Assembly: GCF_900753045.1 (NCBI RefSeq)
Contig: NZ_CAADXO010000012.1
Span: forward strand, 36,588-100,587
Reading direction: 5' to 3'
DNA length: 64,000 nucleotides
Source of the DNA: an uncultured Phascolarctobacterium sp.
Lineage (GTDB): Bacteria > Bacillota > Negativicutes > Acidaminococcales > Acidaminococcaceae
Shown here: positions 10,987 to 22,985 of the stretch, piece after piece
How positions within the stretch are numbered: the first letter of the stretch is position 1
Layout: every line of letters begins with the position of its first letter
Translations under genes and position numbers: made by a program
Notes under the pieces: generated by a model
What the model was told of the DNA's origin: nothing
Databases searched by the model: none
Seen by the model: only the letters and a program-made list of their open reading frames with translations

Positions 10987-11982
10987 TTATTTTGCTATTG
11001 CATGTTCCTTAAGCTCAAGCTTTTGCTTTTCTTCTACATCTTTAATGCGGCAGCTGGCGAAAATAGAACCGGAAACGTTATGCCATACGCTGAAGATAGC
11101 GCCTGGAAGCGTAGCCAGCGGATTAGCAGCGAAGTTTGCGGTTGCCAGTGCAAGCGCCAGACCGCTGTTCTGCATTGCAACTTCGATAGCAATAGATGTT
11201 TCCTTAGCGTAGGATACCTTCATCAGACGCGCCATGCCCAGGCCCAGAGCCATACCGATGCCGTTGTGCAGGACAACAGCCAGCATTACGATCAGACCGC
11301 AGCTCATCAGCTTAGCAGCGTTAACCGCAACGATACCATCGATAATGGTTACAATCGCTACAACAGAAACCAGCGGCAGAATACCGCCCAGCTTGACAAT
11401 GGTATCGTGGAAAAGGCTGTTTAAGATGATACCTGCAAGCACAGGCAGCAGCACAATCTTCACTACGGAAAGCACCATAGCCATAAAGCTTACCTCAACC
11501 CAGGAGCCTGCCAGCAGGTACACCAGCACAGGTGTTACCAGCGGTGCAATCAAGGTCGAAGTGATGGTCATGCCCACGGATAAGGGAACGTCACCCTTAG
11601 CGATGTAGGCAATAACGTTGCTGGCAGTACCGCCGGGGCAGCAGCCCACGAGGATAACGCCCAGAGCGATATCAGTATCAAGATTCATCACTACAGCCAA
11701 AAGATAGGCTGACAGGGGCATAATGGTGTATTGCAGGATACAGCCGGAAATAACCTCCTTAGGTCGGGAAAAGACGATTTGGAAGTCCTCGCGCTTAATG
11801 GTCAGGCCCATGCCGAACATTGCCGTGCCCAGGAAGAGAGCGGTATACTGCGGAATCCACATGAATTCCTGCGGATGGGTGAAAGCAACCGCAGAGGTGA
11901 TTAAAATCACGACGGCGATGTACTTGGATAAAAATCCGCTTACCTTGCCAATGATGTTTAAAACGCTGTTTTGCTCGTTCAT
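10987..11982 (-). CDS. Bile acid:sodium symporter (BASS/SBF) family transporter
   Basis: 331-aa polytopic protein with ...LGVILVGCCPGGTASNVIAYIAKGDVPLSVGMT..., typical of the BASS family. Confidence 0.8.
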   Translation of the reverse strand: MNEQNSVLNIIGKVSGFLSKYIAVVILITSAVAFTHPQEFMWIPQYTALFLGTAMFGMGLTIKREDFQIVFSRPKEVISGCILQYTIMPLSAYLLAVVMNLDTDIALGVILVGCCPGGTASNVIAYIAKGDVPLSVGMTITSTLIAPLVTPVLVYLLAGSWVEVSFMAMVLSVVKIVLLPVLAGIILNSLFHDTIVKLGGILPLVSVVAIVTIIDGIVAVNAAKLMSCGLIVMLAVVLHNGIGMALGLGMARLMKVSYAKETSIAIEVAMQNSGLALALATANFAANPLATLPGAIFSVWHNVSGSIFASCRIKDVEEKQKLELKEHAIAK

Positions 11983-15094: not shown

Positions 15095-17431
15095 TTATTC
15101 GTTGCTGCCTTTCTTAGTTGTAGTAGTTTTTTTCGTTGCAGTGGTTTTCTTTGCAGTAGCGGTTTTTTTAGCAGTAGTTGTTTTAGTAGCTGTAGTCTTT
15201 TTAGCGGCAGTGGTTTTCTTCGCAGCAGTTTTGGTAGCAGCAGTTTTCTTAGCGGTAGTCTTTTTAGCCGCCGCAGTTTTCTTGGCTGCGGTTGTTTTGG
15301 CTTCCGCAGTCTTTGCTGCAGCGGTCTTGGAAGCATATACCGGTCTTGCCTTAGAGCATTCCGGGTTGCTGCAGAACTTGCGCTTGCTGCCGTTGCGTTC
15401 CACGTGCTCTACCATCATATGCTTACATTCCGGGCATTCCTCATTAAGCGGTTTATCCCAGGTGGTGTAATCGCACTCGGGATATTTTTCGCAGCCATAA
15501 AATACCTTGCCGGTTTTACTCTTGCGTTCGAGAATATCGGCGCCGCACTGAGGACATTTTACACCAATCGGGTGCAGGATAGGCTTAGTATTGCGGCATT
15601 TGGGGAAGTTGGGGCAAGCCAGGAACTTGCCGAAGCGTCCTTCGCGGATAACCATCATGGTGCCGTCGTTGCACTTGTCGCAGGGAACGTCGGATACCTC
15701 CAGCGGGATTTCGACAATAGGAATGGCCACGCCTGCGTGGTCCAGATCCTTTTTGAAGGGACCGTAGAATTCGCTGAGGACCTCGTCCTTGGTGTGCTTC
15801 TTCTCGGCAACCTCATCCAGCTTTTCCTCCATCTGGGCGGTGAAGCCGATGTTGATAAGCTCCTTGAAGTATTCAGTGAGCATATCCACGGTCATAATGC
15901 CAAGCTCGGTAACAAGCAGCTTTTTGGCTTCTTTGACAACGTAACCGCGGGTGAGCAGTGTAACGATGGTAGGCGCAAAGGTGCTGGGGCGGCCGATGCC
16001 CTTCTCCTCCAGCTCTTTGATGAGCGTTGCTTCGGTGAAGTGCGCGGGCGGCTCGGTGAAGTGCTGCTCTGCCGGCATAAGCTTGTAAAGCAGCAGCTTG
16101 CTGCCGGGTTCGACGTAAGGCACCTTGGAGTCCTTTTCTTTATCGTCATATTTGCTGTGCAGCTGCAAGAAGCCCGGGAATTTCAGTACGGAGCCTGTTG
16201 CGCGCAGCTGGTAGTCGGCAGCATCAATCGTCAGAGTGGTAACGTCATAAACAGCGTCCGACATCTGGCTGGCAACAACGCGGTTCCAGATGAGGGTATA
16301 CAGCTTGAGCTGGTCGCCTGTAAGGTACTCCTGCATCTCGGCCGGGGTACGCATAACGCTGGTCGGACGAATTGCCTCATGCGCGTCCTGTGCGTTCTTT
16401 TTGGTGCTGTAGTGGTTTTCCTTCGGCGGGCAGAATTCGCTGCCGAAGTTTTGCTTGATATAGTCGCGGATTTCGGCAATGGCAACCTCTGCCAGACGCA
16501 CGGAGTCGGTTCTCATGTAGGTAATCAGGCCGACGGAGGTTTTGCCCAGAGATACGCCTTCATAAAGCTGCTGTGCGAGCATCATGGTCTTTTTGGCGCT
16601 GAAGTTGAGCTTTTTATTGGCCTCCTGCTGCATGCTGGAGGTAGTAAACGGCGGTACGGGGTGACGCTTGCGTTCCTTCTTCACTGCGTCGCTCACGATG
16701 TAATCAGCCTTGGACAGCGCTTCCTCCGCTGCTCTTGCCTCCTGCTCGTTGTGCAGCTCCAGCTTTTTGCCCTGATATTTTACTGCTTCCGCTTCAAAGA
16801 GCTGTCCCTTGCTGCCTTCACGCAGCTTGGCGCTTAACGTCCAGTATTCTACCGGCACAAAGTCTTCAATTTCACGGTCGCGGTCGGCAACGATTTTGGT
16901 AGCAACGGATTGTACGCGGCCGGCGCTCAGGCCCTTGCGAATTTTGCGCCACAGCAGCGGGCTCAGCTGATAGCCTACGATACGGTCCAAAATACGGCGT
17001 GCCTGCTGTGCATCAACCATATCCATGTCAATGCAGCGCGGATGCTTGATAGCGTCCTTGACAGCGGCAGCGGTAATTTCATGAAATTCAATGCGGCAGG
17101 CAGATGTCGGGTCGATGCCCAGAATAAATGCCAGATGCCAGCTGATTGCTTCACCCTCGCGGTCAGGGTCAGTTGCCAGTAAAACTTTGTCGGCTTTTTT
17201 GGCTTCTGTTTTCAGCGCTTTGATTAAATCGCCCTTACCGCGGATGTTGATATATTTCGGCTCAAATTCGTTTGCATGCTCCTCGTCCGGCAGAAAGGTT
17301 ACACCTAGGGTGCTTTTCGGCAGGTCGCGCAAATGTCCCATAGAAGCCTTTACAGTATAGTTTTTGCCTAAAAATTTCTCGATAGTCTTGGATTTCGTAG
17401 GTGATTCCACGATAACCAGAGTCTTTGCCAT
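15095..17431 (-). CDS. topA: DNA topoisomerase I
   Basis: TOPRIM N-terminus MAKTLVIVESPTKSKTIEKFLG...ASMGHLRDLP, C-terminal Zn-ribbon repeats (CPxCG...), and a long K/A/T-rich tail. Confidence 0.95.
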   Translation of the reverse strand: MAKTLVIVESPTKSKTIEKFLGKNYTVKASMGHLRDLPKSTLGVTFLPDEEHANEFEPKYINIRGKGDLIKALKTEAKKADKVLLATDPDREGEAISWHLAFILGIDPTSACRIEFHEITAAAVKDAIKHPRCIDMDMVDAQQARRILDRIVGYQLSPLLWRKIRKGLSAGRVQSVATKIVADRDREIEDFVPVEYWTLSAKLREGSKGQLFEAEAVKYQGKKLELHNEQEARAAEEALSKADYIVSDAVKKERKRHPVPPFTTSSMQQEANKKLNFSAKKTMMLAQQLYEGVSLGKTSVGLITYMRTDSVRLAEVAIAEIRDYIKQNFGSEFCPPKENHYSTKKNAQDAHEAIRPTSVMRTPAEMQEYLTGDQLKLYTLIWNRVVASQMSDAVYDVTTLTIDAADYQLRATGSVLKFPGFLQLHSKYDDKEKDSKVPYVEPGSKLLLYKLMPAEQHFTEPPAHFTEATLIKELEEKGIGRPSTFAPTIVTLLTRGYVVKEAKKLLVTELGIMTVDMLTEYFKELINIGFTAQMEEKLDEVAEKKHTKDEVLSEFYGPFKKDLDHAGVAIPIVEIPLEVSDVPCDKCNDGTMMVIREGRFGKFLACPNFPKCRNTKPILHPIGVKCPQCGADILERKSKTGKVFYGCEKYPECDYTTWDKPLNEECPECKHMMVEHVERNGSKRKFCSNPECSKARPVYASKTAAAKTAEAKTTAAKKTAAAKKTTAKKTAATKTAAKKTTAAKKTTATKTTTAKKTATAKKTTATKKTTTTKKGSNE

Positions 17432-19907: not shown

Positions 19908-20073
19908 ATGTATCACCATCTATATTGTATCGGAAATATAGCTAATCGGAATTTTTTTGCGAAAAAGGCTTGCTATCATAGCCTTTATATTGTATCATAT
20001 TTTTAACTACAATCAATAGTTAATGTTCTCGCAAAGAGTAAAATTCGTGAGAAATTTTTGGGAGGCTCATCAA

Positions 20074-21126
20074 ATGACTACAAGAAGACCTGTTGAAAGC
20101 TTTAGCTTTCCTGTAGAAAAAATTAAAGAAGGTTATTATACTGACGCATATTTTATGCGTTCCGAAGAAATCTTAAACGGTGATAATTATCATCCGCGCG
20201 TGCTGATGCAGGTGTTCGCCCGTGACCATGTTGTTGTTTGCGGTACCGACGAAGTCATTGCTCTGATTCGTCAATGTGCTTTCCATCCGGAAACTATCGA
20301 AATTCATTCCCTGCGTGACGGCGAAGAGGTTGACGAATGGGAAACCGTTATGACTATCGAAGGCGATTATGCTGACTTTGCGCATCTGGAAACCATCTAT
20401 TTGGGTATTCTGGCACGCCAGAGCCGCATTGCTACCAATGTTCGCCGCGTAGTGAAGGCTGCCAACGGCAAGCCAGTGCTTTTCTTCCCTGCACGTTATG
20501 ATATTTACCAGACTCAGGAATCCGACGGCTATGCAGCTTTGGTTGGCGGTATCCACGGCTTCTCTACTGATGCTAATGCTTTGGCAGCAGGCGGCAAGGG
20601 CCTGGGCACTATCCCCCATGCTTTGATTGCTTCCTATAAGGGTGACACTGTTGCTGCTACCGAAGCCTTCGATAAATATGTTGACCCGTCTATCGCTCGT
20701 ATCGCCTTGGTTGACTTTGACAACGACTGCGTAAACACCTCTCTGGCTGTTGCCCGCAAGCTAGGCAAAAAGCTCGCAGGTGTGCGTCTTGATACCTCCG
20801 GCAGCATGGTTGACAAGAGCCTGTGGACTCAGATTGGTACCTTTAAACCGACTGGTGTCTGCAAGGAGCTTGTTTGCAACGTTCGCCGTGCGCTGGATGC
20901 CGAAGGCTTCAACCACGTTAAGATTATCGTTTCCGGCGGCTTTGACGCTGAGCGCGTAGCAGCTTTTGAGGAAATGGGCGTGCCTGTTGATACCTATGCA
21001 GTAGGCTCTTCCTTCTTCGACGGCAATATCAACTACACTGCTGATATCGTTAAGGTTGACGGCAAGGACTGCGCTAAGGCCGGCCGTAAATACAATCCTA
21101 ACCCCAAAATGGAGCTTGTAAAATAA
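20074..21126 (+). CDS. Nicotinate phosphoribosyltransferase-family protein (type II PRTase fold)
   Basis: About 350 aa with ...YTDAYFMRSEEIL... at the N-terminus and a C-terminal TIM-barrel-like region (VKIIVSGGFD...GVPVDTYAVGSSF). Start at the ATG after GGGAGG. Confidence 0.65.
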   Translation: MTTRRPVESFSFPVEKIKEGYYTDAYFMRSEEILNGDNYHPRVLMQVFARDHVVVCGTDEVIALIRQCAFHPETIEIHSLRDGEEVDEWETVMTIEGDYADFAHLETIYLGILARQSRIATNVRRVVKAANGKPVLFFPARYDIYQTQESDGYAALVGGIHGFSTDANALAAGGKGLGTIPHALIASYKGDTVAATEAFDKYVDPSIARIALVDFDNDCVNTSLAVARKLGKKLAGVRLDTSGSMVDKSLWTQIGTFKPTGVCKELVCNVRRALDAEGFNHVKIIVSGGFDAERVAAFEEMGVPVDTYAVGSSFFDGNINYTADIVKVDGKDCAKAGRKYNPNPKMELVK

Positions 21127-21139
21127 TTTGCAACAATGA

Positions 21140-21172
21140 GGTTGCAGTGCGAAAGTGCTGCAGCCTTTTTTG
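21140..21172. terminator. Weak hairpin plus T-run after the NAPRTase-family gene
   Basis: TGCAGTGCGAAAGTGCTGCAGCCTTTTTT. Confidence 0.35.
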
Positions 21173-21248
21173 CTATCCGAAGCCTAGCTTACACCAGGTT
21201 GAACTACAAGTTTTGCCCATAGTAAAGCTAGAATTACAACGTAAAAAC

Positions 21249-21450
21249 AGGAGAATATAGTGTCATGCAGGGAATAAAAATTACAGCGAATAAGTGTCTG
21301 GAACCACAGAAGGGGCGCAATGTCTGAGCGCTATGCTTTGCTCGTACAGTACAATCTCTTAGCTTTGCGCGAGTTTTGCGCCACTTCGTCTTGGTTCCAC
21401 ACGAAATGAGCGACCGTAATTTTTGCTGACCGAAAGGACACTTATTCTCC
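21249..21450. repeat. Intergenic nested-inverted-repeat element, tandem copy A
   Basis: About 200-bp unit bounded by GGAGAATATAGTGTC ... GACACTTATTCTCC, with inner inverted repeats GTGTCTGGAACCA/TGGTTCCACAC and GGCGCAA/TTGCGCC. Confidence 0.6.
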
Positions 21451-21492
21451 GTCTATAGCTCACTCTATGATATTTTTCGTATAAAAAAAGCA

Positions 21493-21690
21493 GGAGAATA
21501 AGTATCATGTAGGGAATAAAAATTACAACGAATAAGTGTCCGGAACCAAAAAAGTTCAGCATTGTTTGAGCGCTATGCAAACTCATATTGCAAAATCTCT
21601 AAGCTTCGCGCGAGTTTTGCGCCACTTCGTCTTGGTTCCACACGAAATGAGTGGCCGTAATTTTTGCTGACCGTAGAGATACTTACTCTC
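21493..21690. repeat. Intergenic nested-inverted-repeat element, tandem copy B
   Basis: Second copy about 243 bp downstream, bounded by GGAGAATAAGTATC ... GAGATACTTACTCTCC. The terminal arms carry compensatory substitutions relative to copy A. It ends at the hydF RBS. Confidence 0.6.
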
Positions 21691-21758
21691 CGAACTACAA
21701 TTTCTATGTGTTATTTTTTCATACATATATTTCATACATATATAAAGGAGAACCCACC

Positions 21759-22985
21759 ATGTCATTGAATACAACTCCCGCTGCCGAGCGTATCCACATC
21801 GGCATCTTCGGCAAGCGTAACGCCGGCAAGTCCAGCCTGATCAACGCCATCACCAGTCAGGAGCTTGCCATTGTCAGCGAACAAAAGGGCACCACTACCG
21901 ACCCTGTATATAAGGCTATGGAGCTTCTGCCCCTCGGCCCCGTAATGATTATCGACACCCCCGGCCTCGACGATGAAGGCGAGCTGGGCGCACAGCGCAT
22001 CGCCAAGGCTCAGCAGGTGCTTAACAAGTGCGACATCGCTCTGCTCGTTGTAGATGCCAGCGTAGGCCTCAGCGAAGCGGATAAAGCGCTGTGGCAGCAG
22101 CTGCAGGCGAAAAAGCTGCCCTCCATCCTCGTTCTGAACAAAGTAGAGCTGCTTGACGAAATGCGCCAGGCACTGCTCACCATGGAAGCCATGAAGCTCA
22201 CCAAGCAATGCTTCCTCGTCAGCGCTATCACCAATCGTAACATCAACGAGCTGAAGGAGGCCATCGCCGCCCTACGCCCGCGTGAGGTAGAACGCCAGCT
22301 GCTCGGCGATTTAATCAAGCCCTGCGACATCGTAGTGCTCGTAACGCCGATTGACAGCGCCGCCCCCAAGGGCAGGCTCATCCTGCCGCAGCAGCAGGTA
22401 CTGCGCAACGTGCTCGATAATAAGGGCATCGCCGTAAACGTACAGGAAAGCGAGCTGGCGGAAGCACTGGCACGCCTCGCCTTCCCGCCTAAGCTCGTCG
22501 TAACCGACAGCCAGGCCTTCGGCGTAGTCAGCAAAATTGTGCCGCCTACCGTTCCGCTCACCTCCTTCTCCATCCTCATGGCGCGCTACAAGGGCACGCT
22601 AAGCTCTGCCGTAGAGGCAGTGCGTGTGCTCGATACAGTGCAGGATGGGGATAAGATACTCATCAGCGAGGGCTGCACGCACCACCGCCAATGTCAGGAC
22701 ATCGGCACAGTAAAGCTTCCCGGCTGGATTCGCAGCTTCACCAAAGCGGAGCCTGAATTCTGCTTCAGCAGCGGCACGGAATTCCCCGAGGATTTGTCAC
22801 AATACAAGCTCGTAGTGCATTGCGGCGGCTGCATGCTCAACGAACGCGAAATGCAAAGCCGCAGTGAACGCGCTGCAGCGCAGAACGTTCCCATGACCAA
22901 CTACGGCATCGCCATTGCCTATATGCACGGCATTTTAAAGCGCAGCGTCGCTCCCCTGCCGGATATCGCCAAGCTGCTGGAGTAA
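21759..22985 (+). CDS. hydF: [FeFe]-hydrogenase maturation GTPase HydF
   Basis: GTPase motifs G1 GKRNAGKSS, G3 DTPG and G4 NKVE. C-terminal Fe-S ligand pattern CTHHRQC...HCGGC. Start at MSLNTT after AAAGGAG. Confidence 0.75.
   Translation: MSLNTTPAAERIHIGIFGKRNAGKSSLINAITSQELAIVSEQKGTTTDPVYKAMELLPLGPVMIIDTPGLDDEGELGAQRIAKAQQVLNKCDIALLVVDASVGLSEADKALWQQLQAKKLPSILVLNKVELLDEMRQALLTMEAMKLTKQCFLVSAITNRNINELKEAIAALRPREVERQLLGDLIKPCDIVVLVTPIDSAAPKGRLILPQQQVLRNVLDNKGIAVNVQESELAEALARLAFPPKLVVTDSQAFGVVSKIVPPTVPLTSFSILMARYKGTLSSAVEAVRVLDTVQDGDKILISEGCTHHRQCQDIGTVKLPGWIRSFTKAEPEFCFSSGTEFPEDLSQYKLVVHCGGCMLNEREMQSRSERAAAQNVPMTNYGIAIAYMHGILKRSVAPLPDIAKLLE

Follow-up and report, generated by a model that had tools for sequence, protein, structure and literature searches.

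What is the repeated palindromic sequence that separates hydF from the gene upstream of it in an uncultured Phascolarctobacterium sp., and does it belong to hydF at all? In the 64,000-nt stretch of DNA analysed here (hereafter the window), the spacer between a nicotinate/quinolinate phosphoribosyltransferase-like (QRPTase-like) gene and hydF, which encodes the [FeFe]-hydrogenase maturation GTPase, is 632 nt long and holds two head-to-tail units. An earlier note, made from the letters of this DNA, described these units as tandem elements of about 240 bp with three nested inverted repeats, suggested a structured RNA or a MITE-like element, and proposed a link to hydrogenase-maturase expression. 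To our knowledge, almost no non-coding biology has been described for Phascolarctobacterium succinatutens, an abundant human-gut succinate consumer.

Two head-to-tail units upstream of hydF

The spacer lies between the QRPTase-like gene (20023-21126; Pfam QRPTase_N and QRPTase_C), which precedes hydF in sister species too, and hydF itself (21759-22985, ATG at 21759; Pfam MMR_HSR1, HydF_dimer and HydF_tetramer). Both genes, and all features described between them, are on the plus strand. A terminator-like hairpin with a T run (21138-21167) closes the upstream gene. In the sister-species homologue the hydF ribosome-binding site (RBS) follows almost directly; in the window an inserted segment starts right behind the hairpin, after TTTTTTGCTATCC. 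This segment comprises a 5' leader that travels with the element (21220-21249), an intact rod-forming element of 201 nt (copy A, 21250-21450), an inter-copy spacer (21451-21492), a duplicate of 199 nt (copy B, 21493-21691), and a trailer that runs, through a 13-nt direct duplication, up to the hydF RBS (21692-21758, with the RBS AAGGAGAA at 21746-21753). The inter-copy spacer is the trailer of copy A and was duplicated along with the unit, as seen from the direct repeats and from the tandem-repeat period, which covers it. The exact 13-nt duplication (TTTCATACATATA twice, 21717-21742) forms the right edge of the inserted segment, directly 5' of the RBS, and the RBS-proximal ...TACATATATAAAGGAG is homologous to the sister-species spacer.

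Tandem Repeats Finder delimits the repeat to 21243-21718 (period 241, 2.0 copies, 82% matches), and copies A and B are 85% identical at a period of 241-242 nt. The sequence, a repeat finder and Tandem Repeats Finder thus agree on the tandem units of about 240 bp. A profile of the element family (nhmmer) matches copy A over its full length with 205 bits. The terminal 14-mer and an inner 21-mer are confined to this locus within the 64 kb, where about 0.3 and 0 matches, respectively, are expected by chance, and neither repeat comparison nor the nhmmer family profile finds a further copy of the element in the window. The only other tandem repeat in the window (15110-15280, periods 15-48) lies inside a minus-strand gene (15095-17431), where it encodes the Lys/Ala/Thr-rich C-terminal tail of a putative DNA topoisomerase I of 778 aa, and is apparently ordinary low-complexity coding sequence.

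The three inverted repeats of copy A pair GGAGAATATAGTGTC (21250-21264) with GACACTTATTCTCC (21437-21450) as outer arms, GTGTCTGGAACCA (21294-21306) with TGGTTCCACAC (21392-21402), and GAAGGGGCGCAA (21309-21320) with TTGCGCCACTTC (21376-21387). The positions given in the earlier note are correct, but its GGCGCAA/TTGCGCC pair is present in copy A only, as the corresponding helix of copy B is broken, with AAAAGTTCAGCATT (21550-21563) opposite TTGCGCCACTTC (21617-21628). The left inner arm of copy B, AAAGTTCAGCA, is of a type that pairs properly in another locus (L088); in copy B it faces a GCGCCACTTC arm, and the helix is therefore broken. The outer arms of copy B, GGAGAATAAGTATC (21493-21506) and GATACTTACTCTCC (21678-21691), do remain paired: GTGTC/GACAC in copy A has become GTATC/GATAC in copy B, so that the compensatory change reported for these arms is real.

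The leader holds a AAAGCTAGAAT box (21224-21234) that resembles the reverse complement of the element's apex. At other loci a AAAGCTAAGA-like box occurs 5' of the rod, and it is on the element's 5' side in both orientation forms described below. A leader-apex pseudoknot is conceivable, but AAAGCTAAGA and CTCTTAGCTTT are complementary at three locus types and not at the others; the leader/apex complementarity more likely reflects fragments of inverted partial copies.

Fold and covariation

Both units fold into rods far more stable than those of shuffled sequence, copy A at -74.1 kcal/mol (z = -5.0) and the weaker copy B at -59.5 kcal/mol (z = -3.8); in neither case did any of 200 shuffles reach the observed value. 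Across the copies tested, z-scores range from -3.8 to -6.1. The reverse complements of A and B likewise fold into stable rods.

We aligned 17 distinct variants of the element. RNAalifold predicts 44 pairs in seven helices, of which 16 carry compensatory double changes. The proportion of paired cells (98.9%, versus 91.3% in shuffles), the number of pairs changed on both sides (16 versus 7.9) and the covariation score (0.258 versus 0.109) were each matched by 0 of 500 shuffles. When partners were slid by 1-3 columns as a control, 29-50% were paired and the covariation score was at most 0.063. The larger alignment thus bears out the suggestion of a structured, repeated element with genuine covariation, and covariation at this level of significance is the generic mark of a structured non-coding RNA (ncRNA). 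Compensatory changes in a DNA palindrome can also come about through hairpin-templated repair, without selection on an RNA.

The centre of the element is almost invariant among the 17 variants; it reads AGTGTCYGGAACCA...GAAG...TGAGCGCTATGC before, and GCGCGAGTTTT...CTTCGTCTTGGTTCCACACGAAA after, a variable apex of about 30 nt. In copy A this conserved central domain, defined from pair counts in the alignment and from loop conservation, spans 21294-21405 and contains the helices GTGTCTGGAACCA/TGGTTCCACAC and GAAGGGGCGCAA/TTGCGCCACTTC, the invariant boxes TGAGCGCTATGC (21325-21336) and GCGCGAGTTTT (21367-21377), and the apex between them (21337-21366). In the central internal loops, unpaired columns are conserved like paired ones, with 13 of 18 invariant, so that the constraint exceeds mere pairing. 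Conservation is lowest, in contrast, in the columns of the outermost stems (mean major-allele frequency 0.67), which are homologous across loci but strongly diverged, with one version per locus (GGAGAATATAGTGTC, GGGAATGGAATGTCG, AGTAATTAAATTCTC and GAGCAATTGCTATATCG among them). That the outer stems were copied from the local target, an idea raised by their RBS-like GGAGAA, is ruled out by the homology of the outer stems of all loci to one another. The 3' arms contain the anti-SD-like TTCTCC.

Some copies have additional parts. Those at the pnp and rib sites described below carry a short G+C-rich accessory hairpin in the 3' strand, with a compensatory change of its own. An optional insert of about 115 nt is located in the 5' strand, between the GGAACCA helix and the GAAG helix, in another strain's hydF locus (L069, 6487-6605) and in about 32 other loci (e.g., L059, 7173-7293). 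Its fold is a pair of similar hairpins (CCAAGAAGCAAG...CTGATTGG) that contain tandem G.A mismatches. A direct repeat, GGGCGCA, borders the insert, which shows presence/absence polymorphism at four sites, with deletion footprints (CCACATGCGGGCGCAATG) in L019 and L041. A K-turn was considered for this insert and rejected: the tandem G.A lies beside a helix, but there is no 3-nt bulge.

Distribution of the element

A 21-mer taken from the centre of the element recovered six loci, spread over four Phascolarctobacterium species that belong to the succinatutens group; this agrees with the source of the window, and relatives of HydF and Xth bear the same genus name. A pattern of the two apical boxes, which were absent from the first, 21-mer search, matched more than 119 contigs, nearly all from the human gut, and gave zero matches among viral contigs; on clustering, these contigs gave about 14 sequence variants and a single chance match. 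By their flanking genes, the variants represent five insertion sites: QRPTase-like/hydF, xth/uvrB, upstream of tctB/tctA, beside pnp, and ribBA/ribH. The search for further copies that the earlier note had proposed thus has a positive outcome: the xth-uvrB, tctB, pnp and rib loci carry the same element. Each of the five sites is intergenic, with housekeeping genes around it, and two are within operons. Inspection of the flanking genes showed no transposase, integrase or invertase adjoining any locus. Run over the window and 944 kb of related loci, the nhmmer family profile detected tandem or partial duplicates but no extra dispersed copies; tandem and half copies occur at xth-uvrB as well. These comparisons establish a family with a covariation-supported structure, under constraint and independent of hydF.

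At the tctB site, a variable number of tandem repeats of about 44 nt (GCAAAGCTAAGAGCAAACTACATTGAGTAACTGAACTCTTATT) run into the 5' end of the element (about 4230-4350 in L005, and the equivalent position in L012 and L002-L004); each carries a AAAGCTAAGAG box, the reverse complement of the apex sequence CTCTTAGCTTT.

Insertion within one clade

In sister species, whose HydF proteins are 70-81% identical, the gene order is the same and the QRPTase-hydF spacer is just 63-136 nt long; it consists of the terminator and then the RBS, and the element profile has no match in it. Likewise, the sister-species xth-uvrB spacer is 14-29 nt long and lacks the element, which in the succinatutens clade follows directly behind the xth stop codon as part of the cassette. 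Comparison of these spacers, with empty sites seen in other species only, shows the element to be an insertion specific to the P. succinatutens clade. The hydF empty-site comparison yields at most an ambiguous CTATC/TCATC as a target duplication, and no direct repeat at the element boundaries is common to the copies compared. Since the element lies inside operons at xth-uvrB and ribBA-ribH, read-through transcription is expected there.

Orientation

The element occurs in both orientations at two of its sites. At hydF, a single copy in the opposite orientation is found in three loci (L013, L053 and L011) whose flanking genes are 94-96% identical to those of the window, and orientation follows lineage. 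At xth-uvrB both forms are common, with 15 loci in sense and 28 in antisense, and the insertion point is exactly shared (e.g., L068, 2215-2440, versus L059, 7084-7455). Among the 35 loci with a full-length uvrB start (13 sense, 22 antisense), orientation is unrelated to the uvrB sequence: uvrB distances are 0.036 and 0.033 within the orientation groups and 0.035 between them, nearest neighbours agree in orientation in 20 of 35 cases (P = 0.36), and in one pair the orientation of the element differs although the 600-nt uvrB start is identical. The two forms are about 10% diverged (88-93% identical when aligned inverted), their leaders and trailers differ in length, and the flanks immediately outside the rod are not common to both. 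On these comparisons, the two forms look like old alleles reshuffled by recombination, and not like the states of an active flip-flop switch.

In antisense xth-uvrB, pnp and rib copies (e.g., L006, L009, L030 and L048), the 5' arm bears on its minus strand a perfect extended -10 sequence (TGCTAAAAT) that points outward, and in the antisense xth-uvrB form it is directed at uvrB. The sense xth-uvrB form has lost the TG (CACTAAAAT), and the opposite arm compensates.

Constraint, exchange between copies and decay of copy B

We compared the diversity of orthologous elements, taken from different strains and species, with that of their neighbouring genes at three loci (hydF, tctB and the sense form of xth-uvrB). 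Pairwise diversity is 0.007-0.017 in the element and 0.07-0.10 at third codon positions of the adjacent genes, so that synonymous sites next to the element vary 5-10 times more than its orthologous copies do. The diversity profile is without a gradient on moving out from the element, which speaks against a recent sweep. The apex and inner helix come in a few cassette types that are common to several loci, which indicates that copies exchange sequence, and the low diversity could therefore be due in part to gene conversion between copies. The arms, however, differ from locus to locus, so that exchange with other copies cannot homogenise them, and their conservation nevertheless equals that of the core. 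Constraint on the element is therefore comparable to or above that on coding DNA.

The two copies in the window differ in this respect. Orthologues of copy A in other strains are 98-99% identical, and copy A is the conserved and presumably functional member of the pair. In L043, L069 and L088 the second copy has suffered internal deletions, different in each, and L028 lacks it altogether. Together with its broken inner helix, this shows copy B to be a mosaic, recombinant unit in decay, and the duplication as a local by-product. The tandem duplication is therefore real, as the earlier note had it, but it is a local feature whose second copy is degenerating here and truncated or absent in other strains.

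Strand preference and search for known signals

The plus strand of the element, which is the hydF strand in the window, folds better than its complement in 14 of the 17 variants, and the consensus fold is -42.7 kcal/mol for the plus strand versus -31.7 kcal/mol for the minus strand (alifold). Over the union of pairs predicted from either strand, G-U exceeds A-C by 31 to 10 cells and by 11 to 5 columns. The strand bias is moderate and does not amount to proof. At three sites, inverted hydF, inverted xth-uvrB and ribBA-ribH, the strand that folds better runs antisense to the operon around it.

A scan with Rfam 15 at the gathering score gave no match in the 64-kb window, either unit included, and none for the element in ten related loci, where T-box and FMN riboswitches were detected away from the element. 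With the threshold relaxed to E <= 10 over 21050-21850, only microRNA-hairpin noise was returned, with no 6S or other model. The plasmid, phage and viral collections contained no match to the element and no autonomous relative of it, and the element was not found in the literature searched, including the supplements of a human-microbiome survey of structured RNAs. Thus the element is previously undescribed, in that none of the RNA families, mobile elements and published motifs searched corresponds to it.

A comparison of 16 representatives showed neither a sigma-70-like promoter nor an intrinsic terminator that keeps the same position among them, and inspection of reading frames across copies revealed no conserved ORF. 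A small protein was rejected, as the candidates (an SD-ATG at the 5' side and an ORF starting in CTATGC) vary in frame and length between copies. We also rejected a type I toxin-antitoxin system: AGGAGAATATAGTGTCATG opens a non-hydrophobic ORF of 20 codons in copy A that is not conserved, copy B reading ATG TAG at this position and other loci having no ATG or an early stop. A sigma-54 promoter suggested by TGGCGCAAAACTCGC on the minus strand lacks a conserved GG in other copies, and a parS-like site suggested by GGTTCCACACGAAAT resembles one half of TGTTCCACGTGAAACA, the second half being missing.

What the element may be

The reading that we favour, at about an even chance, is a selectively maintained structured repeat, or candidate ncRNA family, of the P. 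succinatutens clade, for which a folded single strand is the most likely form. A low-copy cassette, made up of a short leader, a rod of about 200 nt and a short trailer, has entered a few housekeeping-operon spacers in this clade and is kept by selection as a long imperfect hairpin with a near-invariant centre, locus-specific but pairing outer stems and optional accessory hairpins. The active form would be a folded single strand, with RNA the likeliest because the element is inside operons at xth-uvrB and ribBA-ribH and must be transcribed there; the conserved centre would probably serve as a protein-binding platform, or as a processing or stability signal. In the window, the cassette lies between the upstream terminator and the hydF RBS and has been duplicated locally. 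Not everything fits this reading: no promoter or terminator with a common position was found among the copies, and a purely co-transcribed role is at odds with the three sites at which the better-folding strand is antisense to the operon. Only tentatively, and as a less probable claim, do we suggest a new class of structured ncRNA or single-strand-hairpin element: a rod of about 200 nt with an invariant protein-binding centre, spreading as a self-contained cassette, selected at a few operon spacers, and present as ancient alleles of opposite orientation side by side.

Two alternatives are serious. The element could be a small family of independently transcribed, trans-acting sRNA genes, whose products would be rods of about 200 nt with a protein-binding centre and for which, as self-contained cassettes lying at whatever place they reached, orientation relative to the neighbours would be irrelevant. 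Some three to five sites under strong purifying selection, conserved internal loops with variable accessory hairpins, a leader box that moves along with the element, and a strand that folds better whatever the direction of the flanking genes are all to be expected of such genes, as is the decay of redundant duplicates in the manner of extra gene copies. We nevertheless regard this as rather unlikely, because the 16 representatives lack a sigma-70-like promoter or intrinsic terminator at a common position, the distance from leader box to rod varies, and insertion into operon spacers of 14-29 nt makes read-through unavoidable. A site acting at the DNA level, as a cruciform or hairpin for recombination, replication or a nucleoid protein, would be indifferent to the direction of transcription; both orientations at exactly one insertion point at two loci, cassette exchange between copies, recurrent tandem and partial duplications, stable folds of both strands and the lack of detected transcription signals agree with it. 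Yet a symmetric duplex predicts neither conserved asymmetric internal loops nor the tolerance of G-U over A-C; moreover, the accessory hairpins, as we read their fold, carry tandem G.A mismatches, which are typical of RNA, and no recombinase or related gene lies beside any locus. We consider a DNA-level site unlikely, and less probable than the sRNA genes.

The remaining explanations account for parts of the evidence and conflict with more of it. The earlier note's MITE-like element with TIRs, taken more broadly as an ordinary selfish MITE- or REP-type repeat that is non-autonomous, mobilised by a transposase encoded elsewhere and neutral to its host, agrees with a lineage-specific intergenic insertion that sister species lack, with the palindromic layout, and with the occurrence of tandem and partial copies and of both orientations. 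It is improbable because the termini are the least conserved part of the element and differ between loci, no target-site duplication is consistent, only about five sites were found (a handful per genome), the plasmid, phage and viral collections hold no matching autonomous element, and orthologues exceed synonymous sites in conservation by a factor of 5-10, where neutral decay would give the reverse. A typical MITE is disfavoured on these grounds, and REP/REPIN-RAYT was rejected on others: the element is a single 200-nt rod and not a set of 20-40-nt units, and its flanking genes are housekeeping genes. An invertible DNA switch, flipped by a site-specific recombinase to turn hydF or uvrB on and off, would explain why both orientations exist at the hydF and xth-uvrB sites, why orientation at xth-uvrB is uncorrelated with uvrB phylogeny even between identical 600-nt starts, and why an extended -10 (TGCTAAAAT) faces uvrB in the inverted form. 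Such a switch is very improbable, as forms that are about 10% diverged, with leaders and trailers of different lengths and different flanks right outside the rod, do not arise by flipping a single sequence; the neighbourhood contains no invertase gene, and at hydF orientation follows lineage. Least credible of all is that the tandem units serve hydF alone, as a riboswitch or leader RNA. The position between terminator and RBS, on the same strand as hydF in the window, and the anti-SD-like TTCTCC of the 3' arms would suit it; however, the element also occurs at unrelated loci, is antisense to hydF in close strains with 94-96% identical flanking genes, is absent upstream of hydF in sister species, can dispense with its second copy and has no Rfam match. 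The proposed link to hydF is thus not supported. As the same element is present at unrelated loci in either orientation, it is not a hydF-specific switch, and its effect on hydF, if any, would be a side effect of a large hairpin in the leader and not dedicated control. For annotation, the long hydF leader of this genome should accordingly be entered as an inserted repeat and not as a hydrogenase-specific regulator.

More conserved than the surrounding protein-coding DNA, with clear covariation and conserved loops, the element is a concrete candidate for a functional structure of a new kind, in RNA or DNA, and the two orientations at one insertion point, together with the exchange of inner cassettes, could inform how such elements arise, move and persist.

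Relation to known repeats and RNAs

As a descriptive class, the element can be placed among ERIC/BOX-type structured intergenic repeats, as judged from its intergenic location, occurrence in either orientation, stable hairpin and several copies. ERIC (or IRU) sequences are imperfect palindromes confined to intergenic transcribed regions, occur in either orientation, in some copies carry insertions at fixed internal sites, and keep their pairing by compensation. The present element resembles them in being an intergenic imperfect palindrome in either orientation, with internal inserts in some copies and compensated pairing. In contrast to ERIC, with which it has no sequence similarity, it is about 200 nt long and not 127, occupies about five sites and not tens to hundreds, is found in a Negativicute, is invariant in its centre and not as a whole, and has orthologues far more conserved than synonymous sites. 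The pneumococcal BOX, RUP and SPRITE repeats and the Correia elements of Neisseria are short non-coding intergenic repeats with modular parts that form hairpins in transcripts and are also found within operons; our element is likewise non-coding and hairpin-forming, has optional parts, and lies between genes, including within operons. Those repeats, however, have many copies and conserved termini and look recently mobile, RUP and Correia having TIRs and target duplications, whereas the present element has variable termini, no target duplication, a low copy number and strong purifying selection.

With REP/REPIN-RAYT systems the element has in common a hairpin-forming repeat with compensatory substitutions, and on the REP side there is strand-specific recognition of a single strand. 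REPs are 20-40 nt long, REPINs are doublets of them, and both are abundant and RAYT-linked, whereas our element is one rod of 200 nt whose conserved centre is complex, and no RAYT gene was seen near any of its loci. Multi-copy sRNA families such as Qrr, the csRNAs and PrrF similarly have few paralogous copies, sometimes in tandem, with conserved sequence and structure and decay of redundant copies, and 6S RNA is a rod of about 180-200 nt, similar in shape and length to the present one. Unlike these, the element has no promoter, terminator or Rfam match that we could find, and it lies within operon spacers. The invertons of gut bacteria are also segments bounded by inverted repeats and found in both orientations in natural populations; in the present element the orientations are diverged alleles with different flanks, and there is neither a recombinase nearby nor a conserved internal promoter.

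Two further features of related loci were observed. In one sister-species contig (L138, 557-1402), a ThsB_TIR gene (Thoeris-type defence) and a gene with an 8xMP domain lie directly upstream of xth. At the rib and pnp sites, other G+C-rich intergenic sequence, apparently structured or repeated, lies beside the element (L048, 4990-5235; L030, about 11740-11790; and L101, in the 5' flank of the element); CCCCCTTCCGTC...GGGGCAGGCAAGAGGG is common to L030 and L101, and this sequence may represent a second repeat family.
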